Origin: an uncultured Gammaproteobacteria bacterium
GTDB taxonomy: Bacteria > Patescibacteriota > Patescibacteriia > UBA9570 > XYC2-FULL-38-9
Direction of reading: 5' to 3'
Length of the DNA stretch: 64,000 nt
Assembly: GCA_964492735.1 (NCBI GenBank)
Contig: CAZBLE010000001.1
Coordinates: 13,218-77,217, forward strand
Below are positions 1,051-52,638 of the stretch, piece after piece; the stretch's first letter is position 1; each line of letters starts with the position of its first letter. The translations under genes were made by a program, and so were the position numbers. The notes below the pieces were generated by a model. That model had not been told where the DNA came from. It did not search any database and saw only the letters and a program-made list of their open reading frames with translations.

Positions 1051-1205
1051 CGCAACTCTCCTTGTTTTGCGCTCGCAATTATTACGAGCACTAAAGAGAC
1101 AAGCTCGTCCCTTAGCGCTCACAACAATAACGAAATGAGGTCTAAAATTTGCGGACAGTGTACTGATTTTTGACAAAATGTCAAGTCATAGTACACTCTA
1201 TTCCT

Positions 1206-2147: not shown

Positions 2148-2175
2148 ATCACACCTGCCGTTACAAACGAAACTG

Positions 2176-2202
2176 AAAGCGGATCTTACTTCCGCTTTTT
2201 TT
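2176..2202. terminator. Rho-independent, probably bidirectional, terminator between convergent genes
   Basis: Hairpin AAAGCGGA-tcttact-TCCGCTTT followed by a T-run. It overlaps the stop of minus gene 2186..2944. Confidence 0.5.
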
Positions 2203-2944
2203 GTACAAAGACAACGAGAGACACGAAAGCAAGCAACGCTGCCGCAAAATAGGCCACTTGGGCAAGCTGTGGAACATCTGCAAATTTCACACCAATGCCG
2301 ACAAATGCCCAAACAAGCACGAGCGTATATGCAATGTCTTTTTCTCGAACCAACATCAACAATCCAAGCACTGTCGCAACTGCAATCATAATTGCAGACC
2401 ACCACATCGGTTCAATCCCAAAACCATTCCAGTTTGCGAGCGTCAATACTGCTGATGCATATGCAATTGTCGCAACACTAATCCAACCAAGGTACACAGA
2501 AAATGGTAACTGCGCGCACCATGCAAATTGCGCGCTCTGGTTCTTTTTTTGTCCGTGCGTTAATTGTGTGTAAATCATCAGCAGCGACACAAGCAGCACC
2601 GCCATCACGATAATCGTCGTATAAAAATATTGATAATGCCACAACAAAATCCAAGCACTATTGGCAACACTCGACAGGACAACCCACCAACTCACTGCAT
2701 TGAGCGCACGATTGGCATACGTTTTTGGCATCAATTGATAGACCGCATACACCGCGAGCAAGAGATAAATCACACCCCAGATTGAAAAAACATACCCAGC
2801 CGGCACAAAATAGATCGCAAATGAATCAGAAATTTCGCCTGTTAATTTTCCATTATATGGAATGATGTTTGCCAATGCATTCATCACAATCATTGCAACA
2901 ATAGAAATTGCAACGACAATACGCTGAAAGAGAGGATTGTTCAT
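2186..2944 (-). CDS. Polytopic tryptophan-rich membrane protein, possibly TspO/MBR-like
   Basis: 252 aa with about 7 predicted TM segments. Motif PAGYVFSIWGVIYLLL resembles the TspO-family PxGW(T)FxIWxxIY motif. The assignment is tentative. Confidence 0.35.
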   Translation of the reverse strand: MNNPLFQRIVVAISIVAMIVMNALANIIPYNGKLTGEISDSFAIYFVPAGYVFSIWGVIYLLLAVYAVYQLMPKTYANRALNAVSWWVVLSSVANSAWILLWHYQYFYTTIIVMAVLLVSLLMIYTQLTHGQKKNQSAQFAWCAQLPFSVYLGWISVATIAYASAVLTLANWNGFGIEPMWWSAIMIAVATVLGLLMLVREKDIAYTLVLVWAFVGIGVKFADVPQLAQVAYFAAALLAFVSLVVFVQKKRK

Positions 2945-3017
2945 ATTTTTTTATTTAATCGCTAATAGAAAAAGTATAGCGGAAATAGATTTTTACACAA
3001 CGTCACTGCGACTGACT

Positions 3018-3048
3018 TGACGTTTTTCTAGTGTGTGATACTCTGTAC
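3018..3048 (+). promoter_or_regulatory. Candidate sigma70-like promoter upstream of the padR-pspC pair
   Basis: TTGACG, a 16-17 nt spacer, then TGTGATACTCT (extended -10-like). Confidence 0.3.
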
Positions 3049-3071
3049 CGTGTAATACCAAGTACTGAAAT

Positions 3072-3425
3072 ATGTCTACATCATCACCCACTCCACAAGA
3101 AGAATATATTGAGAATATTCAATCGCAAATGCGCAAAGGTTTTTTGGAATTTTGCATTTTATTAATTTTGCATGAAGGCGCAATGTACACAACTGACATC
3201 ATGCGCTCTCTGAAATCTGCCAACCTGATTGTTGTAGAAGGAACGCTCTACCCTCTTTTGAATCGGATGCGACGTTCTGGTTTATTAGAATATGAATGGC
3301 AAGAATCCTCTTCTGGTCCACCACGGAAATACTATCGACTGACAGCTGATGGACGCGTGATGTCGCAGCAACTCACCGACACGTGGCACAATCTCAACGA
3401 CACCATTCATCTTTTAGAACAATAA
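3072..3425 (+). CDS. PadR-family transcriptional regulator
   Basis: 117 aa winged-helix protein; GTLYPLLNRMRRSGLLEYEW...RKYYRLTADG is the PadR signature. Confidence 0.8.
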   Translation: MSTSSPTPQEEYIENIQSQMRKGFLEFCILLILHEGAMYTTDIMRSLKSANLIVVEGTLYPLLNRMRRSGLLEYEWQESSSGPPRKYYRLTADGRVMSQQLTDTWHNLNDTIHLLEQ

Positions 3426-5477: not shown

Positions 5478-7052
5478 TTATTGATTGACTGGAAAGGCTT
5501 TACGGTTTTGCGCAATAATCGCATACGCACTATTGAGTGACTCTACACTATCTGAGCCAATAGTGTCATACGCATAGCTGCCATCTTTGGCATATGTTTT
5601 CTTCAGGTAACTGAAACCATTTTCATTATTTTTTGAAACACTACCCGCTTCACGTCCTTGAGCAGAGAATGCCATCATCGCCCAGGCCGTTGATGAACTA
5701 TTTGAATCTTGTCCTGCCTCATACCCAAAACCACCGTCTGGATTTTGTGCAGAGCGCAAAAATGCAACTGCTTTTGTATATTTTGTATTCAGTAATTTTT
5801 TATAGTATGCATTTTCTGTGCGGACTTTTGACGCAAACATAATCCATGCTGCAGTTGTATCGACGTCAGAATCTCCAGACACTGCATAGCTGAATCCACC
5901 ATCTGCATTTTGACACGGCAATGAACCGTTTACTGCATCCTTCATATCATCACTTGTTTTTTTCACATCAGCTGCAAGAAGAGCAAGGCCTGCAAAAATA
6001 TCATCATTGCAATAACTGCTACTACCGTATTGATTATTTGATTTTGTTGTTGTTAATCGTTTGATGAAATTAATTTTTCCTGTATTTTTACTATTTTCAC
6101 CAATAGCTTCTAATGCCAAGATATGACGCGCAATTTCACTTGTACCTTCTGCTGAAGTTGGTTGGTATTTTTTCACCGCTGCATTGAGCGCAGCATTTGA
6201 CTCACCGGCTGTTGCAAGTGCCATTGCTGACCACTCTGTTGTTGCCTGACTTTCATCAACAATCCCTTTTTTATTCATCTGCTTTTTGATGTATGCAAGG
6301 CCATTTGCTGATTGCGCAAGACGCTGATCAAAATTCACTGCCTGTCGTTTTGCTTTGACAGCATGGACTGTTACTTTTTTGACTGGCGTTTTTGTATACC
6401 CTGTCGCTGTTGCGTACACAGAAATACGACCAGCTTTATTTCGTGTGAATGTTGCTTTTCCATCTGCGTTGGTTGTTACTGCGGTTTTTCCAAAATACAC
6501 TGTTGCATTACTCATTGGAAGATAGGTTTCTCCAGATTTGTATCGCACAGTCGCAACAATCTCTTTTTCTGTTGTCGGTTGCATTGTATTTACTGTTAAT
6601 TGCAGTGGAGATGTCATGCCATAGTCACCGTACACAAACAATAACTGATCCCCATCTTCTAAATCATACTCTGATGCACCGACCGCTCCCTCAACATCGT
6701 TCACATAATATGTCCAATACTGACTATCTCCAACATATGTATCGATAGAGTTTAAAAATAAACCGAACGAAGAATTTTGAACTGCAAAATCAACATTGTA
6801 TTGTTCGCTCGCTGTTTGCAATGCACACAATGCATTAGCACCCGAAAGAGTGTGCTTCACACTTGCGCTATCTGTCACTGTGCAGTCAGCGTCTGATAGG
6901 TAAATTGTTTTATTCAAAATACTTTTATCTGGAGCTTCAATGCGAATTGTCACACCAGTATAGTTTGCAGCCTGCGCGGGTGTCGCGTTGACTGCGGCAA
7001 CGACCACAACCAGTGTGACGATGCTAGATAATTTTGTGAGGAAGTATTTCAT
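5478..7052 (-). CDS. Secreted protein with an N-terminal DUF4430 domain and alpha/alpha-toroid (prenyltransferase/terpenoid-cyclase-like) repeats
   Basis: Signal peptide MKYFLTKLSSIVTLVVVVAAVNATPAQA. DUF4430-like block (...YWTYYVNDVE...LEDGDQLLFVYG). Repeated (N/Q)xDGGFxY...AWxMxAF motifs as in squalene-cyclase/prenyltransferase beta-subunit repeats. Confidence 0.6.
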   Translation of the reverse strand: MKYFLTKLSSIVTLVVVVAAVNATPAQAANYTGVTIRIEAPDKSILNKTIYLSDADCTVTDSASVKHTLSGANALCALQTASEQYNVDFAVQNSSFGLFLNSIDTYVGDSQYWTYYVNDVEGAVGASEYDLEDGDQLLFVYGDYGMTSPLQLTVNTMQPTTEKEIVATVRYKSGETYLPMSNATVYFGKTAVTTNADGKATFTRNKAGRISVYATATGYTKTPVKKVTVHAVKAKRQAVNFDQRLAQSANGLAYIKKQMNKKGIVDESQATTEWSAMALATAGESNAALNAAVKKYQPTSAEGTSEIARHILALEAIGENSKNTGKINFIKRLTTTKSNNQYGSSSYCNDDIFAGLALLAADVKKTSDDMKDAVNGSLPCQNADGGFSYAVSGDSDVDTTAAWIMFASKVRTENAYYKKLLNTKYTKAVAFLRSAQNPDGGFGYEAGQDSNSSSTAWAMMAFSAQGREAGSVSKNNENGFSYLKKTYAKDGSYAYDTIGSDSVESLNSAYAIIAQNRKAFPVNQ

Positions 7053-8044: not shown

Positions 8045-8779
8045 GTGCAGTTATACACATCTATTATGATTCATTCTCTTCCTTCACGACTCGCCTTTCT
8101 CTTCGGTTTTTTTCTCACCACAGGCATTATCATGACGATTGGTTTTATTCTTGCGCTCAGTGTTTTTCTCTCTGGCGCATTGCAAAAAAACACAGACGAT
8201 ACGCCATCAACTGTCACGAGCGCGCCTGTTGAAACAGAACAAACAACAAAAATTGACCTCACAACACTCCGTCACACAATCGGCAAAGGTGACTTTACAT
8301 TGATTGAATACACTGATCTTGAGTGTCCATTTTGTAAAAAATTTCATCCAACTGTTGAAGCAGTGATGAAAGACTATGACGGGCGCATGCGTTATTCAAT
8401 GAAACACTTTCCACTGAACATTCATCCGAAAGCACAGAAAGAAGCGCTAGCAGCAGAATGTGCTGGTCAACAAAATCAATTCTTTGAATTTGTTGATGCG
8501 ATTTTTGCAACAACACCAAGTAATAATAAACTGGAGGAGTCCGTTTTGTTTGACACTGCGTCACAACTAGGACTCCAAATGGATCAATTCAAAACCTGTG
8601 TAGAAACCGAGTCTTTTGCACAAGAAGTAGCTGATGATGCTGTTGAGGCTCAAGCCACAGGCGGTACCGGCACACCACACACTATCATTGTTGATAAAGA
8701 CGGAAATATTGTCACTGGCATCCGTGGTGCAGTTTCTGAAAAACAACTACGAGACGCGATTGATTCGATTCTACAATAA
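8045..8779 (+). CDS. DsbA-like thiol:disulfide oxidoreductase (thioredoxin fold), membrane-anchored
   Basis: N-terminal TM segment and a CPFC active site (DLECPFCKKFHP) with a DsbA-like C-terminal region. Confidence 0.7.
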   Translation: MQLYTSIMIHSLPSRLAFLFGFFLTTGIIMTIGFILALSVFLSGALQKNTDDTPSTVTSAPVETEQTTKIDLTTLRHTIGKGDFTLIEYTDLECPFCKKFHPTVEAVMKDYDGRMRYSMKHFPLNIHPKAQKEALAAECAGQQNQFFEFVDAIFATTPSNNKLEESVLFDTASQLGLQMDQFKTCVETESFAQEVADDAVEAQATGGTGTPHTIIVDKDGNIVTGIRGAVSEKQLRDAIDSILQ

Positions 8780-25495: not shown

Positions 25496-25945
25496 CTACA
25501 TTTCTTTTTTATCTTTGTGTATTAGAAAAAATATTTGGGTTAGTTTTATAGAAATAGCTGCGAGCATACTAATGCCTAGTGCCTGTATTACACTGCCAAA
25601 AAACATTGATGCGGAGATGCTTTGTGTTGGAGCTGATGTGAAAATAAAAATCAAAGCGTCTAAAAACCATTGGAAAGCAAAAGAACACAATCCCATACTT
25701 ACACTAAAAGTAAATATACTCTTTGTATTTAATACAAGCGTATGTATTTTATCCTTAGCTATAACTAAGATAACCGGCACGCAAACCACTATATATATAA
25801 ACGATGAAATGATATAAAAATACTGAAGAGACAGATCTATATATTGTTGAAATAATAGTGGCAGAATTGTTGAAATAACAGCTACGCCAAATAGTGGAGT
25901 AGAAAAAAGAAATACTAATGTATACCATGATTTAGTAAAATTCAT
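25496..25945 (-). CDS. Hypothetical small polytopic membrane protein
   Basis: 149 aa with about 4 TM. Confidence 0.45.
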   Translation of the reverse strand: MNFTKSWYTLVFLFSTPLFGVAVISTILPLLFQQYIDLSLQYFYIISSFIYIVVCVPVILVIAKDKIHTLVLNTKSIFTFSVSMGLCSFAFQWFLDALIFIFTSAPTQSISASMFFGSVIQALGISMLAAISIKLTQIFFLIHKDKKEM

Positions 25946-25989
25946 ATGGATAAAAATAATTTATTTAGATAAAGCAGAAATGCGCAGGT

Positions 25990-26022
25990 GTAAAAATGAG
26001 ATTTCTACACCTGCATTAGCGC
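25990..26022 (-). terminator. Hairpin terminator downstream of high-GC lipoprotein gene 26039..26392
   Basis: GCAGGTGTA-13 nt loop-TACACCTGC, followed on the minus strand by a T-rich run. Confidence 0.5.
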
Positions 26023-26038: not shown

Positions 26039-26392
26039 CTAGCAGGAGCCGACCTGCAGCCAATAGGAACTGGGCCTATTGACCATCGAGCAATACCAAG
26101 AGCCGCGCCACTCAACCCACATGTAGAGGCGGTGGAAAACGCAGTTGGTGCTGCCAGAGTAGTACAGATAGCAGCTGCCTCGAGGCATGCCGCCGCCCAT
26201 GAACTCGTCGGTGTCGGAGATGCTGCCAGTGTCAGAGGGTTCGTTGACCTCGGACTGCTCCAGACTGACCTCCGGGTACAGGACCGGGTCGTGCTGTTCC
26301 GTACAACCACCGGTGAAGGCGGTGAGAACGAAGGTGAGCAGCAGGTACATGACCTGCCACTTGAGGATGATACGCGACATGGCGCGCTCCAT
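26039..26392 (-). CDS. Small high-GC Cys-rich secreted lipoprotein-like protein (variable cargo 1 of the conserved 5' module)
   Basis: N-terminal 32 aa (MERAMSRIILKWQVMYLLLTFVLTAFTGGCTE) are identical to those of gene 43326..44024; the rest is unrelated. About 60% GC. Confidence 0.6.
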   Translation of the reverse strand: MERAMSRIILKWQVMYLLLTFVLTAFTGGCTEQHDPVLYPEVSLEQSEVNEPSDTGSISDTDEFMGGGMPRGSCYLYYSGSTNCVFHRLYMWVEWRGSWYCSMVNRPSSYWLQVGSC

Positions 26393-26642
26393 TGTACTGC
26401 TCGCTGCGGGTTGTTGCTGGGCTTCGAGTGACGAAACAACAGCAGGTGCAACGAGTCTGAACGAATCTCTTCGCCAGAAGGAAAGGCGCGAGGGTGGACC
26501 CGGGCTTCTTTCTGGAAAGTGATTCGCTGATATTGTGAATGAACTATAGAAGAATCATACGCAAGCCTTCTTGCTTTTGTATATGGCGAAAAAACGCCGT
26601 CTGGGGAAAACTCAAAAAACCCTAAACATTAGATAAAAAAAT
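26299..26642 (-). repeat. Conserved 5' module, copy 1 (promoter-proximal -10 region, ~240-nt 5'UTR and the first ~32 codons)
   Basis: About 344 bp, about 99% identical to 43931..44272 (one substitution and one A-run indel). Weaker similarity continues to about 26690. Confidence 0.9.
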
Positions 26643-26680
26643 CACGTGCGCTGTCAAAAAATCGCCAGAATCGACTTATT

Positions 26681-27712
26681 TTATAGCAAGCTAAAATCAG
26701 CAGCTTTCCGCATCCGGTTCATCAACCCCAGATTTTTTTGTGTTGGAAAGTCTGCATAGATAATAATCGTCTGAATCTCTTGTTTATCAGCATCACGAAA
26801 ATGCGCATATACCGTTTGGTTTAAGAGCGGTTTCCAACGTAAATATGCGGCCGCAGATTTTGCTGGTGGTTTTGCTGAGAGGTACCAGACTGTTCCACCC
26901 TTCTCTGCTCCGCGTGCAAATCCGTGCATTGCCTGTTTTTCATCTGTATACAGCTCTACACGAGCATTTGGCGCATAATGTGCATACTTCATCCCTGGAG
27001 AGCGTGGCGCGCTATCAGTCGTTGCGTCCGCTTCACGCCATCGAGGGATTTTTTTTCCGAGAACGTCAGAAATTTCTTGCGCTGTAATCACACCTGGTCG
27101 CATGATTCGCGGCACACTCCCTGTACAGTCAACAACAGTTGACTCAATACCAACATCACACGAACCACCATCAATAATTCCAGCGATCTTTCCACGAAAA
27201 TCATCAAATACATGGTCAGCGGTTGTTGGACTCGGCTTTCCGCTTAGGTTTGCAGATGGTGCAACAAGTGGTGTTTTGGCGGCACGGATCAAAGATAGTG
27301 CAATAGGGTGTGATGGCATACGCACACAAACGGTTGGCAATCCTGCGGTGACACCATCAGGAACAGTCTCTTGTTTTTCTAAAACGAGCGTGAGTGGTCC
27401 TGGCCAAAAATGATCCATCAGCGTTTTTGCATCTGCAGAAATGTGTTGCGCAATCTGCCCAACTGCTCGCTTGCTTGCGACATGAACAATTAAAGGGTTG
27501 TCTTGCGGGCGGCCTTTTGTCTTGAAGACGGCTCGCACCGCTTTTTTGTTATACATATCAGCCCCAAGGCCGTACACCGTTTCTGTCGGGAACGCAACAA
27601 GACCACCAGCCTGCACCATCGCTGCGGCTGCCTGAATATCTACTCGTTTCTTTCCGTCTAATCGTACTGTATTCATTGATTGAATACTGCCGTAATTAGG
27701 CGATTTCGTCAA
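26681..27712 (-). CDS. L-threonylcarbamoyladenylate synthase (Sua5/YrdC; YrdC plus Sua5 C-terminal domain)
   Basis: ...VAFPTETVYGLGADMYN... YrdC motif; 343 aa long form. Confidence 0.8.
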   Translation of the reverse strand: MTKSPNYGSIQSMNTVRLDGKKRVDIQAAAAMVQAGGLVAFPTETVYGLGADMYNKKAVRAVFKTKGRPQDNPLIVHVASKRAVGQIAQHISADAKTLMDHFWPGPLTLVLEKQETVPDGVTAGLPTVCVRMPSHPIALSLIRAAKTPLVAPSANLSGKPSPTTADHVFDDFRGKIAGIIDGGSCDVGIESTVVDCTGSVPRIMRPGVITAQEISDVLGKKIPRWREADATTDSAPRSPGMKYAHYAPNARVELYTDEKQAMHGFARGAEKGGTVWYLSAKPPAKSAAAYLRWKPLLNQTVYAHFRDADKQEIQTIIIYADFPTQKNLGLMNRMRKAADFSLL

Positions 27713-29266: not shown

Positions 29267-29554
29267 TTACCGAAGCATTTCAGGAATTTGATCCTCTTGT
29301 AATTTTGGCAAAAGATCTTTTACCGCATCTTTACATGCCTCCACAGAAGCTCGGCCAAATAGTCGCTCATATTGTCTGACTAGCCTATTAATCACATCAG
29401 ATTCATTTACATTATTTGTAATTTTTACATTCTTTTCGGACTCGAAGACGGATATTCCATCTACCTTAGCCGCCTCTTCCCATGCCAAAGGACCAATGAT
29501 AAGTTCTTGCTCAAGGATAATTTTTTTTGTTATTTCGAGAGTTAGGTTGGCCAT
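29267..29554 (-). CDS. Hypothetical protein
   Basis: 95 aa ORF in the operon-like minus-strand string. Confidence 0.4.
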   Translation of the reverse strand: MANLTLEITKKIILEQELIIGPLAWEEAAKVDGISVFESEKNVKITNNVNESDVINRLVRQYERLFGRASVEACKDAVKDLLPKLQEDQIPEMLR

Positions 29555-29576
29555 ACTAGTTAATCTATGCAGCAGT

Positions 29577-30383
29577 TTATTTTTTTGATTTTAATTTTAC
29601 CAATGCTCTTTCAATGTAAAGAAGGCCCGCTCCCATTAAAAAATATGATATTGAATAAATAAAATCATTTACACCACCAACATACCAACTATCATTATTC
29701 GTTTGAAATAAAAACATGAAATCAGCAAAGAATTGAGTAGTCAATGCAAATAATAATAGAAGCACTGGAAATCTCATTAATCCTTTGGCATAATTAAAAG
29801 ACAAAAGTAGAATACTAACTGTTAATGCTAGATATATTGACTGTCCTATTGGATAGGCATAATTTAAAATACTGATCAATAATTCAGATTTATCAAAAAT
29901 ATAATTTCTTAAGAAAAATCCATAGACAATACTGAAGGATACTAACGCAACTAAAATAATTAAAAAAATATTTTTAATTTCTTTTAGTTGCCTACCAATA
30001 CCCATTGCGAATCCTAAATATATAGCACCAAAAAAATAAAAAACTATACTGCCAAAGTAACCAATATCTCCTACCGATGGAAAAGCCTCTGTGTCCAATA
30101 TATAAATATAATAAGCATATACAAATTGTCCAAAAAACTGAGAAAACAGGCCTAATGATAAAAAAATAATTGATTTTCCAATGTAACTTTTATAGCCACC
30201 CCATTTAATAGCACTCAATGCTCCTAAAATTGAACCTAGTAATGATAAAATAGGATAAGCAACTGTGTAGAGATTGTTGTGAATTGTGTCAATGTAATTG
30301 TTAGAGTAAATAAATCCCCACCAAATAGAAAGTACTAAAAAAATTAATGACAAGCCAACGTATTTAATGGTATTTGCATTCAT
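29577..30383 (-). CDS. Polytopic membrane protein
   Basis: 268 aa with about 8 TM; 4-nt overlap with the upstream gene. Confidence 0.5.
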   Translation of the reverse strand: MNANTIKYVGLSLIFLVLSIWWGFIYSNNYIDTIHNNLYTVAYPILSLLGSILGALSAIKWGGYKSYIGKSIIFLSLGLFSQFFGQFVYAYYIYILDTEAFPSVGDIGYFGSIVFYFFGAIYLGFAMGIGRQLKEIKNIFLIILVALVSFSIVYGFFLRNYIFDKSELLISILNYAYPIGQSIYLALTVSILLLSFNYAKGLMRFPVLLLLFALTTQFFADFMFLFQTNNDSWYVGGVNDFIYSISYFLMGAGLLYIERALVKLKSKK

Positions 30384-31252
30384 AAGTGTAATTGATATTT
30401 TTTTAGAAAAAACTTTGGCTTTAAAGATTTTTTAAAATACCTCAAACCTTCAATGCCTAAGTCTTGTTCAAAATTAATATATTTAATATTTTTTTCTTGC
30501 AAAATATTCGCTACCGCATTTATTAAATAATGCGCAGAACCTTTATATAAGGTATCAGTTTTTTGAAAATGAAACAATGCATAATCCTGATTTAGGATTT
30601 CATAAAAACAAAATCCAACTATACTACCATCAATAAAAAATCCTAATTCTTCAGTTTTAATATCAATTTCACTTAGATGATAACGAAAATACTCAGTCAT
30701 TGCTTTTTTCTCTTTGATATTAAAATGCTCATTTTTTTTATCAGAAAAAAATTTATCGACTTTTTCTACGTCTACAAAATGAATATCACCTTTATCATAT
30801 TTTGCCAAAAAACGATTTTTCATATTTCTAATAGTAGCCATCTCACTATTTTCTAGTTGAGCAAGTTTTTGAACACTTAAAATATAATCAAAATTATCAT
30901 CATCCAATATGACCGGATATCCCAACCTACTTAATCGTTTCGCTAAGTGTTCTGGGATGTATTTTATTTTTTTATTCGGATAAAACCGGCTTAAAAGATG
31001 CATCAGATAAATAAGATTCTCATCGCTAACTTCTTTTTTTATAATGATAGATACAAAAAAATCATTTGATACATAGTCCTGCATTAGCAAAATTGCACCC
31101 TCATCAAAAAAACATACGCTTGCGTCATTTTTACACCAACTCCATAAGCTAGTAAAATTATGATCGGAGTATGGCGGGTATTCATTTGTAATACTTTCAA
31201 TTTTAGAACGATCAGTTATTTTGATGCTTCTAAAATTTAATTTGATATTCAT
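30380..31252 (-). CDS. Hypothetical protein, possibly DUF2156 (aminoacyl-phosphatidylglycerol-synthase C-domain)-like
   Basis: 290 aa soluble protein translationally coupled to the downstream polytopic membrane protein. The family assignment is from memory of domain size and architecture only. Confidence 0.3.
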   Translation of the reverse strand: MNIKLNFRSIKITDRSKIESITNEYPPYSDHNFTSLWSWCKNDASVCFFDEGAILLMQDYVSNDFFVSIIIKKEVSDENLIYLMHLLSRFYPNKKIKYIPEHLAKRLSRLGYPVILDDDNFDYILSVQKLAQLENSEMATIRNMKNRFLAKYDKGDIHFVDVEKVDKFFSDKKNEHFNIKEKKAMTEYFRYHLSEIDIKTEELGFFIDGSIVGFCFYEILNQDYALFHFQKTDTLYKGSAHYLINAVANILQEKNIKYINFEQDLGIEGLRYFKKSLKPKFFLKKYQLHL

Positions 31253-31263
31253 TTACAGTATTT

Positions 31264-31746
31264 TTATGATTGATATTGATATACCGCCAGACTTATTACT
31301 GAAATAGGTAAGTCAATGCAAACTGTTGCGTGTATATTTTTATCTACAAACGAAGAGTCAAATTTAATTTTCCGACGCTCACACATATCTTGAAGTGTCT
31401 GATCAATTAGCCTAGATACTTTTAAATAAACATCTGACCCACCTTTAGCGTGATGTTCAACAAAAAAACCCTTACCTTCTTCAATTTTATACCACCCAAT
31501 ACCCGCTGCTATATGCTCTTCAATTTTAGAAGTAGTTTCGAATGCCTTGACAACATAAAGTCTTTTTCCAAAATCCTCTTCTGGTGTTATATAATTCTCT
31601 ACTTGTTTTATATTAGAGTTGGGGGGTATGATAGAAGATAGATAAATTAAATTGTAATTTGAAACACCGGCATTAAACAGGGCATCGTCAAAAGAAGAGA
31701 GTTCAGTACTCCCAGTTCCAACTCCTCCAGTAATAATAATATCCAT
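31264..31746 (-). CDS. pdaD: Pyruvoyl-dependent arginine decarboxylase
   Basis: ...FDDALFNAGVSNYNLIYLSSIIPP... matches the PdaD self-cleavage region (cleavage between the two Ser of the SS pair); 160 aa. Confidence 0.7.
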   Translation of the reverse strand: MDIIITGGVGTGSTELSSFDDALFNAGVSNYNLIYLSSIIPPNSNIKQVENYITPEEDFGKRLYVVKAFETTSKIEEHIAAGIGWYKIEEGKGFFVEHHAKGGSDVYLKVSRLIDQTLQDMCERRKIKFDSSFVDKNIHATVCIDLPISVISLAVYQYQS

Positions 31747-31841
31747 ACTATAATACTAGTACTTATATAAAAAACCATTATACAGTATAGCACAAAATAA
31801 AAAAATCTTTATACTTTTTTTTAAACTAATCGCCCAATTTT

Positions 31842-33290
31842 CTAACGGCTATAACGATCTGATTGTATTTTTGTATAATCAACACTCATTTGCCAGCGTA
31901 AAACAATAGGCAGTATCTCTTGACCAAAATCATGAAGTTCTTTCAATTTTTCAATATGCTCACGCTTAAATGGCATATTATTTTTATGCCTGCCAATAAA
32001 AAAAATTCCTAAGGTTGAGTTTATAAAAGGAAGGGTATTTGATTGAACTAAGAATAACATTTTTGCATTCATTTTTTGCATGATTTTGGGCAGCGTCGTA
32101 TGGCTATACTCTTCTTCAATCTTCCCTACTGTTAAAATCATAGGAAGACCTTGCAATTCATCTACAAACTCTGAATCAAATAAATAATATCGATTAGTTT
32201 TCTTTTTTGGAAAAAATTCTACAAATCTACTCATGTGTTTTTGTTGTACATAAACAGAAACTACTGGCGCCTCAACAGCTTCTTGAATCATCCCAGCATA
32301 CTTAAGCAAAAAAGACTCAAGCTCATGGGTTGAATTTAACAAAAAATCTCGCTCAGAAATATATTTTGAAAAATCCAATGTTTCACGCATAAATAAATTA
32401 TTCATCAACTTTGTCACAAATAATGAAAATAAATGAAAGAAAAAAGTAAACACAAAAACTGACAATAGGAAATAGGCAATAATTTCTTTGGTCCCAACTA
32501 TATTACGTAACACAAAAAAATACACGGACGAAACTGCCAAATAGTACATTAGTGTAAACAAGCTAAATAATGTGAGTTGAAAAATTCGTTTTTGTACAAT
32601 GATGCGAATATTAAATAATCGCAAGCGCACAATAGCGTAAAGCATAAATAATCCAAGAACATAAACACTTAACGGCCCATATAATGTACTTACATATTGA
32701 TTAAAAAATACTGGTAGGATGATATTATTCCAAAAACCAAAGAGAAATGTCACAGAAAATCCAGTAGTAATATATCTAAGTTGTGTTCTATAGCGAACAC
32801 TATTGTTTGGATTGCGATATTCTTGAATTAATAAAAAAAGTGTATACCCAAAAAATGCAAACGCATATGGTAAAAATAAGTAGTATACTGGACCGAGATT
32901 TATTTCATCATAATTTGGATTACCATGAATAAAATACGATGCTGTGTAGCTAGTAAACGAAAACGGAAACAATACCCAGGCAATGACATATATGTTTAAT
33001 TCACGAATTTTTGAAATTTCAGTTTTTGTAAAAACGTAAACAAAATGTAAAAATGTTGCCGGAAAAAATATAACAGCCGTTAATGACCAGCGCGATAAAT
33101 AAATCATTAATACTGGGTCTGTGATAAAATGCGCTATTACATGAATACCACTCCATAAAAATAATTGTAGGCAAATAAATGAAAGCAAAATAACCACCTT
33201 ATTAAAAGATCTATAATAAATAACAACTAGAACAATAGCAGATAATAAAAAACAAACTCCAAATAGGCTGATAAGAAAAAATGTGTTCAT
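31842..33290 (-). CDS. Membrane protein: N-terminal ~8-TM domain plus a ~180-aa cytoplasmic C-terminal domain
   Basis: 482 aa; resembles 7TM-receptor-type sensor N-domains but has no kinase motifs. Confidence 0.45.
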   Translation of the reverse strand: MNTFFLISLFGVCFLLSAIVLVVIYYRSFNKVVILLSFICLQLFLWSGIHVIAHFITDPVLMIYLSRWSLTAVIFFPATFLHFVYVFTKTEISKIRELNIYVIAWVLFPFSFTSYTASYFIHGNPNYDEINLGPVYYLFLPYAFAFFGYTLFLLIQEYRNPNNSVRYRTQLRYITTGFSVTFLFGFWNNIILPVFFNQYVSTLYGPLSVYVLGLFMLYAIVRLRLFNIRIIVQKRIFQLTLFSLFTLMYYLAVSSVYFFVLRNIVGTKEIIAYFLLSVFVFTFFFHLFSLFVTKLMNNLFMRETLDFSKYISERDFLLNSTHELESFLLKYAGMIQEAVEAPVVSVYVQQKHMSRFVEFFPKKKTNRYYLFDSEFVDELQGLPMILTVGKIEEEYSHTTLPKIMQKMNAKMLFLVQSNTLPFINSTLGIFFIGRHKNNMPFKREHIEKLKELHDFGQEILPIVLRWQMSVDYTKIQSDRYSR

Positions 33291-37397: not shown

Positions 37398-37502
37398 CTT
37401 GCCCCTGTAAAAACGACTTTTGCTGAAAAGCGAAGCAGTTTTTTGCTCCCTACAACGCGGCAGAAATGCCAAACACGCGGCTCACAGCCGCAACGTGGAG
37501 AC

Positions 37503-38321
37503 CTCATGGTCAACGTCATTTTTACCCTCTGTTTTCTGATCGTCACCACCCCGAGCGTGCTGCGGCGCGCCCTGGTTGCCCGGGCAATCGCCTGGGCCAA
37601 CTTCCGCGACACGATCGGCAGCGTCAAAGGCTGGGCCAGCATGCGCTGGTTCATTAACTACTACAAGATGATGACTCCGCTCGTCGTCTTGGACCTGATG
37701 GCCTACTTCGAGACCTGGAGCTCGACGGCATGGATTTACTTCGCGGCCCATAGCGCGTACTGCCTGGTGTGGCTCGTAAAGGACAACAAATGGCCGCACT
37801 CCAGCTTCAGCGGCTTGATGCTGAACTGGCAAGGCCTTGCCGGCCTGTGGTTCAGCGTCTTGGGCGCCTTCTGGGTCTGCCCGACGCTGCTCATGGCAGG
37901 GCACATCGAGGTTCCGCTTTGGTGGGCGGCGCTGTGCGGCAGCATGACCATAACAGGCGGCGCGATCACGTACGTCGCCGATGGTCACAAGGCGGATCAA
38001 GTTGCAATCGCGCGCGCGAACGGTGAGAAACACCCACTGATCACGAGCGGCCTGTGGCGCCACATCCTTCACCCGAACTACACGGGTGAAATTGTGACCT
38101 ACACAGCACTGTCCGCCTTCCCGCTTCCGTGGGCATTCATTGCCACGGACTGGCGCTGGCAGGTTGCGGCAATTGTGCCGCTGGTGATCATGGTCCAGGT
38201 GTTCTGGAACGCCATGTTCCCGAACATCTGTCGGATCAACCAGCACATGCTGCAAACCCGCGGTGAGCGCTGGACCCAGCACACGCAGCAAGCCTGGCAG
38301 ATCCTGCCGTATATCTGGTAA
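37503..38321 (+). CDS. High-GC polytopic membrane protein of the ICMT / DUF1295 / steroid 5-alpha-reductase-like methyltransferase superfamily
   Basis: ...LITSGLWRHILHPNYTGEIVTY... matches the RHPNYxGE signature. About 62% GC. An alternative start at 37443 is possible. Confidence 0.6.
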   Translation, partial: LMVNVIFTLCFLIVTTPSVLRRALVARAIAWANFRDTIGSVKGWASMRWFINYYKMMTPLVVLDLMAYFETWSSTAWIYFAAHSAYCLVWLVKDNKWPHSSFSGLMLNWQGLAGLWFSVLGAFWVCPTLLMAGHIEVPLWWAALCGSMTITGGAITYVADGHKADQVAIARANGEKHPLITSGLWRHILHPNYTGEIVTYTALSAFPLPWAFIATDWRWQVAAIVPLVIMVQVFWNAMFPNICRINQHMLQTRGERWTQHTQQAWQILPYIW

Positions 38322-38423
38322 AACCAGCTATACGGCAGCACGACAACGGGTCGGAAATAACGTAAGCAGACGGCTTGCAGTATCTTCCGGCCCAACTCCC
38401 CTCCCTTTTTTATATTCAAAACC

Positions 38424-41977: not shown

Positions 41978-42445
41978 CTATACGTTCATGAATTTTTTCT
42001 TCGCAAGGTAAAAATGTATTACTGGAATTGCGATAGCTATACAAACTGTAATAAATGCCGTATGTACAGCCGTAGCAAAAACCACCTGCTTTAATACATC
42101 GCTCGGGATATATGCGAACTTGAAGGAAACAAAATGAATAAACATAATACTCAAAAATATTAACCCCATTACTCCCCCAAGTGTCCAAAATAAATTTTTA
42201 GTGTGTAACAAATGATCTTGTTTCATTATTAATAATTGACGGACAAAATATGGCACGATCAATAAAAGGTAAGATAATAAAAATATTGGAAAAAGATAGA
42301 TAGCGAAATTGAGAAAGTTATTAGGTGTAATAAAAGGCAACGTTTGCATGAACAATGAAAATGCAATCACCGGCAGACTTAGCTGTGTGATCAATTTTTG
42401 TAAATCTTTTAGAGTTTGCATAGGTCTGTAAATTTTTATTGACAC
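41978..42445 (-). CDS. Hypothetical polytopic membrane protein
   Basis: 155 aa with about 4 TM. Confidence 0.45.
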   Translation of the reverse strand: MSIKIYRPMQTLKDLQKLITQLSLPVIAFSLFMQTLPFITPNNFLNFAIYLFPIFLLSYLLLIVPYFVRQLLIMKQDHLLHTKNLFWTLGGVMGLIFLSIMFIHFVSFKFAYIPSDVLKQVVFATAVHTAFITVCIAIAIPVIHFYLAKKKFMNV

Positions 42446-42858
42446 TCTTTATTCAAAATACGTTCACGAATTTTTTGTTCGTCCTGTTCTTCAAAAACAG
42501 TTTTTAAATTTAACTCGTCACTGCGATTTATGCAATATAAGTATACTTGTTTCGTCTCATGAACATAATTCATATAAAATTCACGCTCACTATTTGCATA
42601 CACTATATCACTCTGTCCGTATGGAAGGACTTCAAATGTTGCATTAGGATACTGTTCAAGAAATAATTGAATCACAGGATTATTTTTCATTGCTTGAATG
42701 CGCCTTTCTACCTCTTTATCTTGTTGATAACCGTGAATAAAAAAAGCCAACAAAAGACAAATTAAAATTGCAAGGGCAAAAACTAAAAAGAAAATGAAAC
42801 GTTTATTTGTCATATGTATTATTTTATTTCCCAACCTTGGTAAACCCCCGGCGTACAA
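42436..42858 (-). CDS. Hypothetical N-terminally anchored small protein, paralog of the next gene
   Basis: 140 aa with an N-terminal TM. LEQYPNATFEVLPYGQSDIVYANSE...VYLYCINRSDE parallels FEKQYPGVVKEKLYGRNYVIRYHV...LYLACEGSQ in the next gene. Confidence 0.45.
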   Translation of the reverse strand: MYAGGLPRLGNKIIHMTNKRFIFFLVFALAILICLLLAFFIHGYQQDKEVERRIQAMKNNPVIQLFLEQYPNATFEVLPYGQSDIVYANSEREFYMNYVHETKQVYLYCINRSDELNLKTVFEEQDEQKIRERILNKECQ

Positions 42859-43220
42859 ATAGCTTCCTGCTGAATCATTACTTTAAATTCATCAGGCGTA
42901 ATATTTTTTACTGGCTCACTCTCCAACTGACTGCCTTCACATGCTAGATAGAGACGCTTATATGAATCTGTCGCTAAAGCAAATTCTGAATCTTTTAGTT
43001 GAACATGATAACGAATTACATAATTACGACCATATAACTTTTCCTTTACCACTCCAGGGTACTGTTTTTCAAAAGCTTGAAATATTTCATCTTTCTGCAC
43101 TGTCCTGTAAGCTTGATTTGCTGGTTGATAAAATAAATACCCCCAGACAATGAATGCAAAACATAAAATAATTGCACTGGCTGATACAGCAATAAGAATA
43201 TAGAAGGGGATTTTTTTCAT
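42819..43220 (-). CDS. Hypothetical N-terminally anchored small protein, paralog of the previous gene
   Basis: 133 aa with an N-terminal TM and sequence similarity to 42436..42858. Confidence 0.45.
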   Translation of the reverse strand: MKKIPFYILIAVSASAIILCFAFIVWGYLFYQPANQAYRTVQKDEIFQAFEKQYPGVVKEKLYGRNYVIRYHVQLKDSEFALATDSYKRLYLACEGSQLESEPVKNITPDEFKVMIQQEAICTPGVYQGWEIK

Positions 43221-43261: not shown

Positions 43262-43307
43262 CTGAGAATTAGCAGTAAATCACTAAGATTACTACTAATT
43301 CTCAGAG
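43262..43307 (-). terminator. Rho-independent terminator of high-GC lipoprotein gene 43326..44024
   Basis: 17-bp stem CTGAGAATTAGCAGTAA/TTACTACTAATTCTCAG with one mismatch, followed on the minus strand by TTTTT. Confidence 0.6.
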
Positions 43308-43325: not shown

Positions 43326-44024
43326 CTACCGCATCTGCTTGAGCTGCATGTGCGCCATGTAGGAATCGAGGGACTTCGGCCAACAGGCATAGACACTGTG
43401 CTGTCCGTTGCCGTCGTTCTTGTAGATCTCGACGCCGTAGTGACCCTCCCAGGCCCAGAGGTAGAGGCGAGGCCACCAGTGGGAGGAGTAAGCCTTCAGC
43501 TTGGACTGCTGCCCACGGTAGTCACGGTTCATCCAGAAGCTAACCACCCAATCATCGTTGCCGCACTGTGCCGGCTTCGTGTAGAAGTAGCAGTTGGGCG
43601 ACCAGATGTTGGAGTAGTTTGTTCCTGAATCATAAGGCACTTCACCGAAGCCAATGATGCGACCATCCTTGTAGTGACAGTCCGGCAGGAAGGTCGGCGG
43701 CGGAGCCTTCTGTCCGTCCATGTTGATGATCGTGTCATCGGGATCATCGTGAGGAATACCGAAGTACTCGATCGCGTCGATAAGATCCTGACGCTCCTCA
43801 GCACTCATGCCCTCGACGACCGTGAAGTCATCGACCTTGAGCTGCTCAACGATCTGAACCACCTCGTCGTAGGTCCAGCCGCGGAACTCCTCGGCCTGCT
43901 CAAACGCCTGGCTGTCGATGCTCGACTCCTCCGTACAACCACCGGTGAAGGCGGTGAGGACGAAGGTGAGCAGCAGGTACATGACCTGCCACTTGAGGAT
44001 GATACGCGACATGGCGCGCTCCAT
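43326..44024 (-). CDS. High-GC secreted lipoprotein-like protein (variable cargo 2 of the conserved 5' module)
   Basis: N-terminal 32 aa identical to gene 26039..26392. The mature part (Trp/Tyr-rich, ...WWPRLYLWAWEGHYGVEIYKNDGNG...) is unrelated to it. About 60% GC. Confidence 0.65.
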   Translation of the reverse strand: MERAMSRIILKWQVMYLLLTFVLTAFTGGCTEESSIDSQAFEQAEEFRGWTYDEVVQIVEQLKVDDFTVVEGMSAEERQDLIDAIEYFGIPHDDPDDTIINMDGQKAPPPTFLPDCHYKDGRIIGFGEVPYDSGTNYSNIWSPNCYFYTKPAQCGNDDWVVSFWMNRDYRGQQSKLKAYSSHWWPRLYLWAWEGHYGVEIYKNDGNGQHSVYACWPKSLDSYMAHMQLKQMR

Positions 44025-44272
44025 TGTACTGCTCGCTGCGGGTTGTTGCTGGGCTTCGAGTGACGAAACAACAGCAGGTGCAACGAGTCTGAACGAATCT
44101 CTTCGCCAGAAGGAAAGGCGCGAGGGTGGACCCGGGCTTCTTTCTGGAAAGTGATTCGCTGATATTGTGAATGAACTATAGAAGAATCATACGCAAGCCT
44201 TCTTGCTTTTGTATATGGCGAAAAAACGCCGTCTGGGGAAAACTCAAAAAACCCTAAACATTAGATAAAAAA
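43931..44272 (-). repeat. Conserved 5' module, copy 2
   Basis: About 99% identical to 26299..26642. Sequence further upstream (putative -35 region) diverges between the copies. Confidence 0.9.
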
Positions 44273-44334
44273 TCAATGGCTCATTTTAAAAAGTCGCCAG
44301 AATCGGGGTATTTTGCTACTGTTGTCTATATTGT

Positions 44335-49781: not shown

Positions 49782-49853
49782 CTACTCCTCCCCTTCAAAC
49801 TCCTCCATCTCTTTCAGCAGTTTTTTGAATTTGCGAGATGGGTATTGTAGGTG
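49782..49853 (-). repeat. Duplicated dnaJ 3' end, direct repeat copy A (remnant of the last ~23 codons plus a stop)
   Basis: The reverse complement encodes ...YPSRKFKKLLKEMEEFEGEE* ; about 94% identical to the dnaJ terminus at 51178..51249. Confidence 0.8.
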
Positions 49854-51177: not shown

Positions 51178-52290
51178 TTATTCCTCCCCTTCAAACTCCT
51201 CCATCTCTTTGAGGAGTTTTTTGAATTTGCGAGATGGGTATTGTGGGACATGAATATTCACTTTCACAAGATGGTCACCACGACCGTGTCCGTGCAACCG
51301 TTGAATGCCTTTTCCACGCAGTCGCAAAATCGTTCCGGCGGTTGTTCCGGCTGGAATTTTTAGATCAACCAATCCGTCCAGTGTTTCAACTTCAATACGA
51401 CCACCGAGGACAGCAGTTGGATATGACACCAACTCTTCCACAACCACATCATCACCTTGGCGTTGAAAATTTTCATGGGACTTCACATGGACCACGACAT
51501 ATAAATCACCGGCTGGTCCACCAAATTGCCCAGCCTCACCTTGGCCGCTCATTCGCATGGTTTGTCCATCTTCAATACCGGCTGGAATATTCAACTCAAG
51601 GGTGGTGTTCTTTTTTTCAATCCCGTTTCCACGACACGTTTTGCACGGTGTCTTCACTGTTTTGCCGCGACCATTACAACTTGAACAGGCAACTTGCGTT
51701 CGAATTTGCCCGAAGACGCTGCGCTGAATCTGGTCAACCACGCCTGAACCTTTACAGGTGTCGCAGGCTTCAATTGGCGTTCCTGGCTCTGCGCCGTTTC
51801 CAGAACAGTGTGAACAGGTCGCCCCTTTATACAGCTCCACTTCTTTTTTGACGCCAAAGGCTGCTTCTTTGAAATCAATCGTCGTGTCCATTTGAATATC
51901 TTGGCCACGCTGCTGCGCGCTCGCACCGCCACGTCTGCGTCCACCGCCAAACAAATCACCAAAAATATCGCCGAGATCAAACTCCACGCCTTGGCCGCCG
52001 AAACCGCCTTGGCCTCCAGCTTGGCGCATAATATCTTCCCAATTCATGCCAGCGCCGCCGCCGAAACCGCCTTGGCCATTCACACCCGCTTCTCCAAATT
52101 GGTCGTAGGCGCTGCGTTTTTGCTTATCTGAAAGGACTTGATACGCCTCATTCACCTCTTTGAATTTCGCTTCATCGCCACCGTCTTTGTCAGGGTGATA
52201 TTTGTGCGCAGCTTTCCGAAACGCCTTTTTAATCTCATCTTCTGAGGCGGTTTTTGAAACTCCTAAAATATTGTAATAATCTTTTGCCAT
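51178..52290 (-). CDS. dnaJ: Molecular chaperone DnaJ
   Basis: J-domain with HPD (KYHPDKD), G/F-rich region and four CxxCxGxG zinc-finger repeats. The last 23 codons make up direct repeat copy B. Confidence 0.9.
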   Translation of the reverse strand: MAKDYYNILGVSKTASEDEIKKAFRKAAHKYHPDKDGGDEAKFKEVNEAYQVLSDKQKRSAYDQFGEAGVNGQGGFGGGAGMNWEDIMRQAGGQGGFGGQGVEFDLGDIFGDLFGGGRRRGGASAQQRGQDIQMDTTIDFKEAAFGVKKEVELYKGATCSHCSGNGAEPGTPIEACDTCKGSGVVDQIQRSVFGQIRTQVACSSCNGRGKTVKTPCKTCRGNGIEKKNTTLELNIPAGIEDGQTMRMSGQGEAGQFGGPAGDLYVVVHVKSHENFQRQGDDVVVEELVSYPTAVLGGRIEVETLDGLVDLKIPAGTTAGTILRLRGKGIQRLHGHGRGDHLVKVNIHVPQYPSRKFKKLLKEMEEFEGEE

Positions 52291-52296: not shown

Positions 52297-52638
52297 TTAT
52301 ACTGTATTAGTTTTTCGCAGTCGTTGCACTATATAAAGAATTCCCCAAACTGGCAATGACCAGATAAATGCGGAAAAAAGAACGAAGGCAGCTAATCCAA
52401 GGACTTGATACACTACTCCTCCAAATCCATAAACACTGGTTAGATATGGATCAACCATAAATGCCCACGCGATTGCTGGGAATGTTATAAACAGCATTGC
52501 TCGAGAAAAAAAAGTTTCACCATTAAATAGATCTTGTCCAAATACATACGACAAAAATAGCACCACGATAAACACCAAGACCCACACGAGATATGTCAGG
52601 ATATATGGATTGACTAGTTTTGTAAGGAAAGATTTCAT
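52297..52638 (-). CDS. Small 3-4-TM membrane protein, paralog 3 of a tandem triplet
   Basis: 113 aa; shares MKxFLxKLVNxYxLTYL...WSLPVWGI motifs with the two upstream genes. Confidence 0.55.
   Translation of the reverse strand: MKSFLTKLVNPYILTYLVWVLVFIVVLFLSYVFGQDLFNGETFFSRAMLFITFPAIAWAFMVDPYLTSVYGFGGVVYQVLGLAAFVLFSAFIWSLPVWGILYIVQRLRKTNTV

Follow-up and report, generated by a model that had tools for sequence, protein, structure and literature searches.

In the 64,000-nucleotide window analysed here (the whole stretch of contig CAZBLE010000001.1 from position 13,218 to 77,217, assembly GCA_964492735.1; positions below are those of the window), two lipoprotein genes begin with an almost identical 5' module. 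One copy lies 3' of sua5 (locus 1, 26298..26640) and the other is divergent from wecG (locus 2, 43930..44272). Both are on the minus strand, forming direct repeats 17,632 bp apart, and a repeat search and explicit alignment found 342 of 343 bases identical. With a probability of roughly two in three, this reflects concerted evolution of the module between two paralogous lipoprotein cassettes, accompanied by cassette turnover at the sua5 locus. Each cassette consists of the module, a GC-rich lipoprotein gene, a terminator-like hairpin and very AT-rich genes for small membrane proteins. The module would be the family's own 5' end, comprising the promoter region, a two-hairpin leader, a hairpin over the Shine-Dalgarno sequence and start codon, and a lipoprotein signal peptide. 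Both genes would thereby be transcribed alike, controlled through the leader, and exported and lipidated in the same way.

The shared block covers the candidate promoters, a leader of 150-240 nt and the signal peptide as far as the lipobox Cys. Its sole mismatch, T at 26327 versus C at 43959, is synonymous and falls in a GTT/GTC Val codon. The 3' edge lies directly after codon 32 (Cys-Thr-Glu). At the 5' edge there is a T run, T7 in copy 1 and T6 in copy 2, followed upstream by a spacer of about 20 nt that differs between the copies. Beyond the spacer, CGATTCTGGCGA is again identical at 12 of 12 positions (26662-26673 and 44294-44305). The 5' extension of copy 1 (26641..26673, minus strand) thus contains T7, a locus-1-type spacer with a TTGACA -35-like hexamer at 26657-26652, and CGATTCTGGCGA; that of copy 2 (44273..44305, minus strand) contains T6, a locus-2-type spacer and CGATTCTGGCGA. 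An earlier note on this DNA, made from the sequence, had described two such near-identical blocks ending after codon 32, a GGCG-T6-CGCC hairpin in the 5' untranslated region (UTR) and a separate hairpin terminator for each gene. The blocks, their end point in the alignment of both copies, and the hairpin (26585-26598 and 44217-44230) were confirmed, and a terminator-like hairpin is present 3' of both genes. The third lipoprotein gene (1-1050), to which the note ascribed a different 5' region, has no DNA in common with the module.

Module identity is 99.7% within the window, 80% to the locus-2 ortholog on contig L001 and 74% to the locus-1 copy on contig L007. Because the module of these relatives is just 74-80% identical, the near-identity within one genome points to recent gene conversion, which supports the earlier claim that the identity exceeds what two old loci allow. 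Paralogs are more alike than orthologs, the tract is bounded and its flanks are locus-specific. Compared by eye, the copy-1 spacer TTTTTTGACAGCGCACGTGA has more in common with TTTTTTGGCGGCACAGTTAA at L007 locus 1 than with the copy-2 spacer, which is nearly the same as the spacer at the sua5 locus of contigs L002 and L004 and somewhat like that of L001 locus 2. The linkers following the signal peptide are locus-specific too, being of the HDP type at locus 1 both in the window and in L007. Both loci were concluded to be old from the sequences compared. The observed pattern would be accounted for by recent non-reciprocal homologous recombination, with the conversion tract stopping where the homology of the paralogs stops: at the differing linkers on the 3' side and at the locus-specific promoter spacer on the 5' side.

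The two cargo proteins, of 117 and 232 amino acids (aa), had been regarded as unrelated. This does not hold, as both belong to one paralogous family linked through the L007 locus-1 protein, which has a 117-like N-terminus and a 232-type C-terminal domain. When compared directly by BLASTP, the window proteins match significantly over residues 1-33 only. However, the N-terminal 59 aa of the 117-aa protein, a stretch that takes in the mature linker HDPVLYPEV..., share 53% identity with the L007 protein (E 6e-21), the signal peptide and acidic linker of which, EHDPILQPEVTSEQSEE, match QHDPVLYPEVSLEQSEV of the 117-aa protein. Since this linker is joined in L007 to a 232-type C-domain, the 117-aa gene is taken as the locus-1 member of the family. 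Its Cys-rich tail is short and divergent, contains four Cys and aligns weakly with the 232 family (RLYMWVEWRG vs RLYLWAWEGH, E 0.04-0.25); homology to the full C-domain is not demonstrable from these sequences. The GC content at third codon positions (GC3) remains at 0.78-0.82 in frame to the end of the gene, which supports its being coding. A word-index search with the 117-aa protein returned no homologs.

Turnover at the sua5 locus is visible in the relatives. Among 5.8 billion protein clusters, the window's Sua5 has only four close relatives, at 94, 79, 75 and 70% identity, and the next matches stand at 50%. In the window, sua5 is followed by the module, the 117-aa gene, a gene for a 149-aa membrane protein, a VTT/DedA-like gene on the other strand and a bactofilin-like gene. 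In L004/L002 (Sua5 94%), the module, a 232-type pseudogene and a 134-aa gene occupy this place. In L005 (79%) the site is empty and the bactofilin-like gene comes directly next; in L006 (75%) a 41-nt remnant of the 125-aa gene of locus 2 precedes the bactofilin-like gene. L007 (70%) has the module, a diverged 232-type gene and a 136-aa gene homologous to the 133-aa gene of the window. Locus 1 of the relatives thus occurs in four states: with an ancestral-type cargo in L007, overwritten and now pseudogenic in L002/L004, reduced to a deletion scar in L006 and empty in L005.

L002 and L004 are short contigs of two separate Logan assemblies of sibling runs (SRR8640623 and SRR8640622). In both, the 3' end of sua5 is joined to a module with the locus-2-type spacer and to a locus-2-type cargo 95% identical to that of the window. 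This cargo is disrupted in three ways: the sequence between the leader and codon 15 is missing, a TGG codon has become a TAG stop, and a second deletion affects the 3' part. It was concluded from these features that locus 1 of this strain was probably overwritten from locus 2 and has since decayed, which agrees with the earlier proposal of recombination of the module onto different cargo, the module acting as a homology block for the exchange. The same junction is also expected if the 17.6-kb segment was duplicated in tandem or excised as a circle. A simple deletion was considered as well and found unlikely, as it would remove ileS. The L006 remnant (1145-1185, 37/41 identical, E 8e-9) stands in the sua5-bactofilin intergenic region and, judged by this match, marks a deleted cassette; L006 and L001 come from the same sample. 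The homology block that carries conversion would also let whole cargos pass between the loci and cassettes be lost. Strains differ in the locus-1 lipoprotein, and the variation observed lies between strains and species, so that it would represent evolutionary turnover of surface-protein cassettes and not a programmed switch.

Synonymous divergence (dS) between the window and L001 adds a further sign of exchange. For three neighbouring housekeeping genes (epimerase, aminotransferase and Cu-oxidase_4) it is 0.66-0.79 and for the cargo linker 0.75, while the cargo C-domain has 0.17 (non-synonymous divergence, dN, 0.007) and the adjacent 133-aa gene 0.24. The signal peptide has a dN of 0.33. The contiguous low-dS tract formed by the C-domain and the 133-aa gene spans a GC-rich and an AT-rich gene and is better explained by recent between-lineage exchange than by codon-bias constraint alone.

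The cargo of locus 1 (26039..26392, minus strand, GC3 0.82) consists of an HDP-type acidic linker and a 45-aa region with four Cys after the signal peptide. A terminator-like hairpin with a 15-bp stem follows at 25983..26015 (minus strand), and then a gene for the 149-aa multi-pass membrane protein (25496..25945, minus strand, GC 30%). The cargo of locus 2 (43326..44024, minus strand, GC3 0.80) encodes a helical N-domain and a Trp/Tyr/Cys-rich C-domain (CxGYxG..NCYF..QCG.D..SFWM..DYR..YACWP). Its palindromic terminator-like hairpin (43262..43306, minus strand) has both arms changed in L001 with the pairing kept (GAGAATTAG...CTAATTCTC to GAGGATTA...TAATCCTC). Downstream on the same strand are the gene for a 133-aa N-terminally anchored protein (42819..43220, GC3 0.26), a cargo partner conserved in L001, L002 and L007; its 125-aa paralog (42436..42813), the gene whose 3' end persists as the 41-nt scar in L006; and a 155-aa multi-pass membrane protein gene (41978..42445, GC 32%), the last low-GC gene of the cassette. 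The 149-aa and 155-aa proteins have no similarity to each other. Pfam, NCBIfam and PDB sequence searches gave no match for the cargos, the 133-, 125-, 149- and 155-aa proteins or the lipoprotein at 1-1050, and Tandem Repeats Finder (TRF) found no tandem repeats in the cargos. The predicted structure of the 232-aa protein reached an unusable pLDDT of 39.7 with 3 sequences and a moderate 66 with 7 sequences; a fold search gave no match.

Two candidate promoters were placed in the module. P1 in copy 1 has the form TTGACA-18-TCTAAT, its -10-like TCTAAT being read at 26628..26633 on the minus strand (44260-44265 in copy 2); the -10-like variants are TCTAAC in L001 and TTTAAG/TAAGAT in L007. P2 (TATACA-18-TATGAT, 26554..26583, minus strand; 44186-44215) came from a consensus scan with a 9/12 match, no better than shuffled sequence in that scan; its TATACA is conserved in L001 and L007. 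The GGCG-T6-CGCC hairpin (minus strand) stands in a block of about 40 nt, TTTTCCCCAG..GGCGTTTTTTCGCCATATACAA, which ends in ATATACAA and is near-invariant in all relatives; a GGTG variant in L002/L004 retains a G-U pair. Conservation across the window, L001, L002/L004 and L007 includes the TTCTGGCGA-T-rich segment, the -10-like TCTAAT, this block and the GC-rich leader.

The leader is 90% identical between the window and L001 and 83% between the window and L007, with sua5 DNA at 71%; a 2-nt indel within it indicates that it is non-coding. Leader hairpin 1 (CCAGAAAGAAG...CTTCCTTCTGG, 26464..26524, minus strand; 44096-44156) was obtained by folding and recovered in the window and L007, where the 5' arm differs and the CAGAAG/CTTCTG pairing is kept. 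Leader hairpin 2 (26400..26455, minus strand; 44032-44087) has an 8-bp basal stem, an internal loop and stems of 5 bp and 6 bp. The same architecture appeared in separate folds of the window, L001 and L007, with one compensatory pair (G-C to A-U in L001). The z-scores of the leader folds are modest, from -1.8 to -2.9. There was no Rfam match, either at gathering score in the window or up to E = 10 on 26250-26750. Given the 83-90% conservation, the two hairpins and the compensatory pair, the earlier suggestion of a cis-regulatory RNA is plausible for the GC-rich leader.

Each module contains two copies of the 9-mer TTCTGGCGA, which the rest of the 64 kb lacks (4 sites vs 0.49 expected). One box lies 5' of the promoter region (26662-26670 and 44294-44302) and the other in hairpin 1 (26471-26479 and 44103-44111). 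Both boxes are kept in L001 and L007, with a spacing of 191 bp in the window and, by reading, about 193 in L001 and about 219 in L007. Another short motif, GACGGC[GT]C, is repeated on the distant contigs L008 and L013. Its 9 copies in 12.7 kb of L008 (0.31 expected) are all on one strand, at 3011, 3085, 4096, 5810, 5886, 5903, 11497, 11559 and 12571 (+), and those of L013 are at 4099, 4748, 4822, 6338 and 6421 (-). The copies are mostly paired, 62-83 nt apart, and the sites checked are intergenic, including those 5' of both GC-rich lipoprotein genes. In the window module, AGACGGCG at the hairpin can be set beside this motif. A single leader common to all GC-rich genes was also considered and rejected: among 15 upstream regions most have a UTR hairpin, with the sequence shared in the near clade only.

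The signal for translation is contained in the module as well. An AUGG-AGCGCG-CCAU hairpin (26378..26392, minus strand; 44010-44024) covers the first ATG, a GGAG Shine-Dalgarno sequence (26387-26390) and the second ATG (26378-26380). In L007 the first ATG is replaced by CTG, and GGAG stands 6 nt 5' of the second ATG. The start is therefore probably the second ATG (26380 and 44012), and of the 32 shared codons in the earlier note the boundary stands but the assumed first-ATG start probably does not. From the second ATG the translation begins MSRIILKW...FTGGC, giving a signal peptide MSRIILKWQVMYLLLTFVLTAFTGG (26303..26380, minus strand; 43935-44012) with the lipobox Cys codon at 26303-26305. 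It contains MSRIILKWQVMYLLLTFVLTAF-TGG-C, basic R3 and K7, and Cys as residue 26, and satisfies the PROSITE PS51257-type rule as applied by hand, on which basis both window genes encode predicted lipoproteins. T and G occupy positions -3 and -2, unlike in the classical [LVI][ASTVI][GAS]C; the corresponding residues of distant homologs are LSAC, ASGC, FLAC and VFGC. The window itself contains no gene for Lgt or Lsp, the enzymes that would process such lipoproteins.

The 232-aa protein has two close homologs in a large protein database, P0001 (80% identical, on L001) and P0002 (95%, on L002). L001 is syntenic with the window at 38.4-44.6 kb (wecG, module, cargo, 134-aa, 125-aa, epimerase, aminotransferase, Cu-oxidase_4). 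A profile search of 1.84 billion representatives gave seven matches, of which P0124 and P0128 were judged from their sequence to be probably spurious. The remote homologs added in this way (P0123, P0125, P0126 and P0127) share CxGYxG..NCYF..QCG.D..SFW..DYR..YACxP, and remote members are 25-36% identical to the window's protein. In each case examined, the next gene after the family member is AT-rich and encodes a membrane protein anchored by its N-terminus, and these downstream proteins are not homologous to one another in distant members. As far as the recovered sequences indicate, the family is restricted to this lineage, and its cassettes occupy two chromosomal sites, 3' of sua5 and divergent from wecG. 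The window contains SUF genes, a dnaK-dnaJ region, a TagA/WecG-family enzyme, a type-2 IleRS and many small membrane ORFans, a content that suggests a small-genome organism resembling the Patescibacteria, or candidate phyla radiation (CPR). The labels of relatives disagree: L001 is a contig of a Lake Mendota metagenome-assembled genome labelled 'Bdellovibrionales bacterium', and one distant family member is labelled 'Patescibacteria group bacterium'.

Both cargos belong to a class of genes with deviating codon usage. The window has about 43% GC overall and four GC-rich islands, and four of its genes have GC3 0.76-0.82 against 0.30-0.48 in the remainder: the lipoprotein gene at 1-1050 (-), the 117-aa gene (-), an ICMT/DUF1295-like gene at 37506-38321 (+) and the 232-aa gene (-). 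In this class the preference is inverted for nearly every amino acid, AAA/GAA/TTT/TAT giving way to AAG/GAG/TTC/TAC, and in the 232-aa gene GC3 alone is shifted (GC1 0.55 and GC2 0.38 are genome-like). That DnaK and GAPDH are unshifted speaks against translational selection of the ordinary kind. The relatives show the same picture within genomes of GC3 about 0.2-0.55: the family genes of L001, L008, L011 and L013 form GC-rich islands (GC3 0.74-0.88) among neighbours of GC3 0.13-0.55, other GC-rich islands excepted, and the gene directly 3' of a GC-rich member is AT-rich (GC3 0.21-0.30). The L014 member is milder (GC3 0.53), and the L007 gene has 57% GC. The profile search revealed no homolog of the lipoprotein family in a high-GC genome. 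Because homologs of 25-36% identity share the GC-rich state and no high-GC donor was found, this state is considered to be maintained rather than recently imported.

Across divergent relatives, mostly envelope genes have GC3 0.74-0.94 vs 0.13-0.55 for the other genes on the same contigs; these are 564-1265, 5755-6690 and 6835-7149 in L001, 1-1194, 6001-6687 and 11773-12669 in L008, 5001-5621 in L011, and 500-3088 and 5001-5717 in L013. Glutamate is encoded by GAA in 76% of cases in background genes and by GAG in 77% in the GC-rich class, and a tRNA-Glu with the anticodon CUC (GAG only) lies at 61716-61790 (-). A second variable spot adjoins Cu-oxidase_4 (window 37443-38420, L001 5716-7149). 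There the window has one GC-rich ICMT/DUF1295-like gene, and L001 has an extra GC-rich 312-aa gene and an ICMT-like gene without detectable DNA similarity to the window, the flanking housekeeping genes being 85-87% identical. Nothing specific to a codon-usage dichotomy in CPR bacteria was found in the literature. Only tentatively can it be proposed that the lineage actively maintains a dedicated envelope-gene class in a codon dialect opposite to that of the rest of the genome, a reading that may well prove wrong. In the window the class would include the lipoprotein family, a second lipoprotein and the ICMT-like membrane protein, with GC3 of about 0.8 vs about 0.35 in housekeeping genes. It could be maintained by selection, e.g., for codon-dependent translational control or mRNA stability acting together with the conserved structured leader, or by GC-biased gene conversion at recombination-prone surface-protein cassettes, and the module would then be the control and recombination handle of the class.

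Several other explanations of the repeated module have to be weighed. A programmed switch for antigenic or phase variation, as in the mycoplasma Vsp/Vpma/Vsa systems, in which a site-specific recombinase acting at a conserved 5' site moves a single expression site, would produce a similar architecture of conserved 5' UTR and signal peptide on divergent lipoprotein bodies. It could also draw on the TTCTGGCGA boxes, confined to the modules in the 64 kb and located at or near the L002/L004 crossover in the case of the upstream box, and on the T6/T7 run within the P1 spacer. However, the entire promoter-bearing region is present in both copies, so that neither gene should be silent. Site-specific recombination between direct repeats 17.6 kb apart would delete ileS and other essential genes instead of inverting the segment. 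Furthermore, no recombinase was found among the 56 open reading frames (ORFs) scanned, just two copies were found, their cargos lack tandem repeats and all observed variation is between strains or species; a switch of this kind is very improbable. An assembly artefact, i.e., a collapsed or chimeric join in one copy, might be suspected as the 343-bp repeat is longer than short-read k-mers. Its likelihood is next to negligible: independent assemblies back both contexts (wecG-module-cargo in L001, sua5-module in L002, L004 and L007), the copies differ by one substitution, one T-run length and the adjacent spacer, and the copy-1 linker matches the L007 locus-1 protein.

The cassettes might instead encode polymorphic toxins or effectors directed at a host or competitor, with a constant secretion N-terminus, exchangeable C-domains and a protective small membrane protein downstream. 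Such a system would fit the transfer of the C-domain and the 133-aa gene as one low-divergence tract (dS 0.17 and 0.24 vs about 0.7), the AT-rich anchored-protein gene following each family member examined, the differing C-terminal parts behind a constant N-terminus in the window genes and the presence/absence polymorphism at locus 1. A DsbA-like protein encoded at 8045-8779 could oxidise Cys-rich exported proteins. It is nevertheless unlikely, as the Pfam, NCBIfam and PDB sequence searches and the fold search gave no similarity to a toxin, immunity or defence family and distant members have non-homologous proteins encoded downstream. What stays constant amounts to a signal peptide, with neither a delivery domain nor a VENN-like recombination motif, and the cargo and its supposed partner have a terminator hairpin between them. 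Recent horizontal acquisition would have brought the GC-rich genes and part of the leader from a high-GC donor, inserted twice, with the repeat as a shared element end. The GC content of 57-63% and GC3 of 0.76-0.82 in a 43% GC genome, the inverted codon preferences relative to housekeeping genes, the beginning of the GC-rich tract about 135 nt 5' of the start codon within the non-coding leader and the empty locus 1 of two relatives speak for such an origin. Yet no donor was found, the five credible profile matches (P0002 and the four remote homologs) being all in low-GC genomes, and homologs of 25-36% identity are GC-rich islands in five contexts, which makes the trait old and maintained. In addition, the 232-aa gene is host-like at GC1 and GC2, and no integrase, transposase or terminal repeats stand beside the cassettes, so that acquisition of this kind is quite improbable.

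Some points weigh against concerted evolution with cassette turnover as well. The L002/L004 structure may be a repeat-induced assembly join, which is unlikely because both contigs share a unique internal deletion. If it is genuine, the crossover occurred 5' of the spacer, in or above the 12-nt CGATTCTGGCGA, which is very little homology for RecA-type recombination. Promoter use, expression and lipidation are predictions from sequence, and the leader covariation rests on three or four sequences. The lineage is thinly sampled: a leader 29-mer matched one contig, the same as L001, among 185,579 species genomes, and the module was absent from JGI metagenome contigs (two different patterns, 0 matches) and viral contigs (one pattern, 0 matches). 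The view is of 64 kb of this genome, and more copies, silent cassettes or a distant recombinase may be present elsewhere in it.

Other repeats and islands were recorded in the window. Inverted repeats of 45 nt (53386-53430 and 54595-54639, 91% complementary) enclose a 1.16-kb island of 25-31% GC with two ORFs (175 and 172 aa) without Pfam match, a segment that could be invertible or mobile. A 423-aa gene that matches GDPD weakly stands between the two copies of a 69-nt direct repeat (49783-49851 and 51179-51247, 94% identical). The 3' end of a dnaJ-like gene (51178-52290) forms one of these copies, and the 423-aa gene looks like an insertion that duplicated the dnaJ end. Directly 3' of dnaJ are three tandem paralogs (52297-53325, minus strand) for N-terminally anchored proteins of about 110 aa (MK.FL.KLVN.Y.LTYL...). 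A 4-kb AT-rich island (29267-33290, 27-34% GC) between a histidine kinase gene and recO/ileS encodes an LPG_synthase_C-like protein, a pyruvoyl-dependent arginine decarboxylase and a HisKA_7TM membrane protein.

The mechanism proposed for the module has known parallels, and it is the conserved leader, the novel lipoprotein family and the maintained split in codon usage that merit further study. The conserved structured leader of about 150 nt without an Rfam family is one testable object, the uncharacterised Cys/Trp/Tyr-rich lipoprotein domain paired with a small anchored protein is another, and the gene class with GC-rich synonymous sites in an AT-leaning genome is a third. If the GC-rich state is actively maintained, it bears on the roles of biased gene conversion and selection in shaping bacterial base composition. 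Joining divergent lipoprotein bodies to one conserved module for expression and export is a route of surface diversification met repeatedly in small-genome, host-associated bacteria.

The mycoplasma Vpma, Vsp and Vsa systems, whose Vsp/Vlp/Vsa counterpart the earlier note had seen mirrored here, resemble the window in that a small-genome bacterium has divergent surface lipoproteins whose 5' UTR and signal peptide are nearly invariant (PMC2268961). Such systems have, by definition, one promoter with silent genes, a neighbouring gene of the xer1 type and sites of recombination from -1 to -72 (PMC2268961). In contrast to their clustered multigene locus, the window has two copies 17.6 kb apart, each with both candidate promoters, and promoterless genes were not found. 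Their adjacent recombinase (Xer1, Mbr or HvsR) acts on 5' UTR sites, where inversions occur, and no recombinase was found among the ORFs scanned here, the copies being direct and not inverted repeats. The mature mycoplasma proteins are repetitive, unlike the window cargos, in which TRF found no repeat. On the sequence features compared, membership in this class fails, with the conserved 5' region as the sole shared feature, and the mycoplasma mechanism offered in the earlier note is not supported.

The 'upstream homology box' (UHB) lipoprotein families of Borrelia burgdorferi (ospE/ospF/elp, equal to erp) were reportedly described by Marconi et al. in 1996 (J Bacteriol 178:5615, a reference listed in PMC6719511). 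Their paralogs have a conserved upstream region and leader peptide and divergent mature parts reshuffled by recombination, and each copy has its own promoter, so that the genes are co-regulated and not switched. The window cassettes are alike in all of these respects, as far as they can be predicted. The difference is that the UHB families comprise many copies on cp32 plasmids with characterised operator-binding proteins, whereas the window has two chromosomal copies, no known regulator and a leader that is long, structured and GC-rich. The Staphylococcus aureus lpl genes are described as a lipoprotein paralog family in which the recombining unit differs from the ORF, extending over intergenic DNA into the 5' portion of the gene (PMC2568036). 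They form a tandem cluster (PMC2568036), in contrast to the two dispersed loci of the window with conversion apparently limited to promoter, leader and signal peptide. For base composition, the LGR ('large G+C-rich') genes of Protochlamydia amoebophila are a partial precedent, being GC-rich lineage-specific paralogs in an AT-rich genome, with no outside homologs and with evidence of chromosomal relocation (PMC2216083). They differ in encoding 5-kb leucine-rich repeat (LRR) proteins, in lacking a shared lipoprotein module and in that no claim is made of GC-richness maintained across distant relatives (PMC2216083). By analogy, the closest functional counterparts would be the Borrelia UHB families and the recombining S. 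aureus lpl paralogs. The module system would thus be an example from outside the mycoplasmas and spirochetes, kept by gene conversion rather than by a switch.

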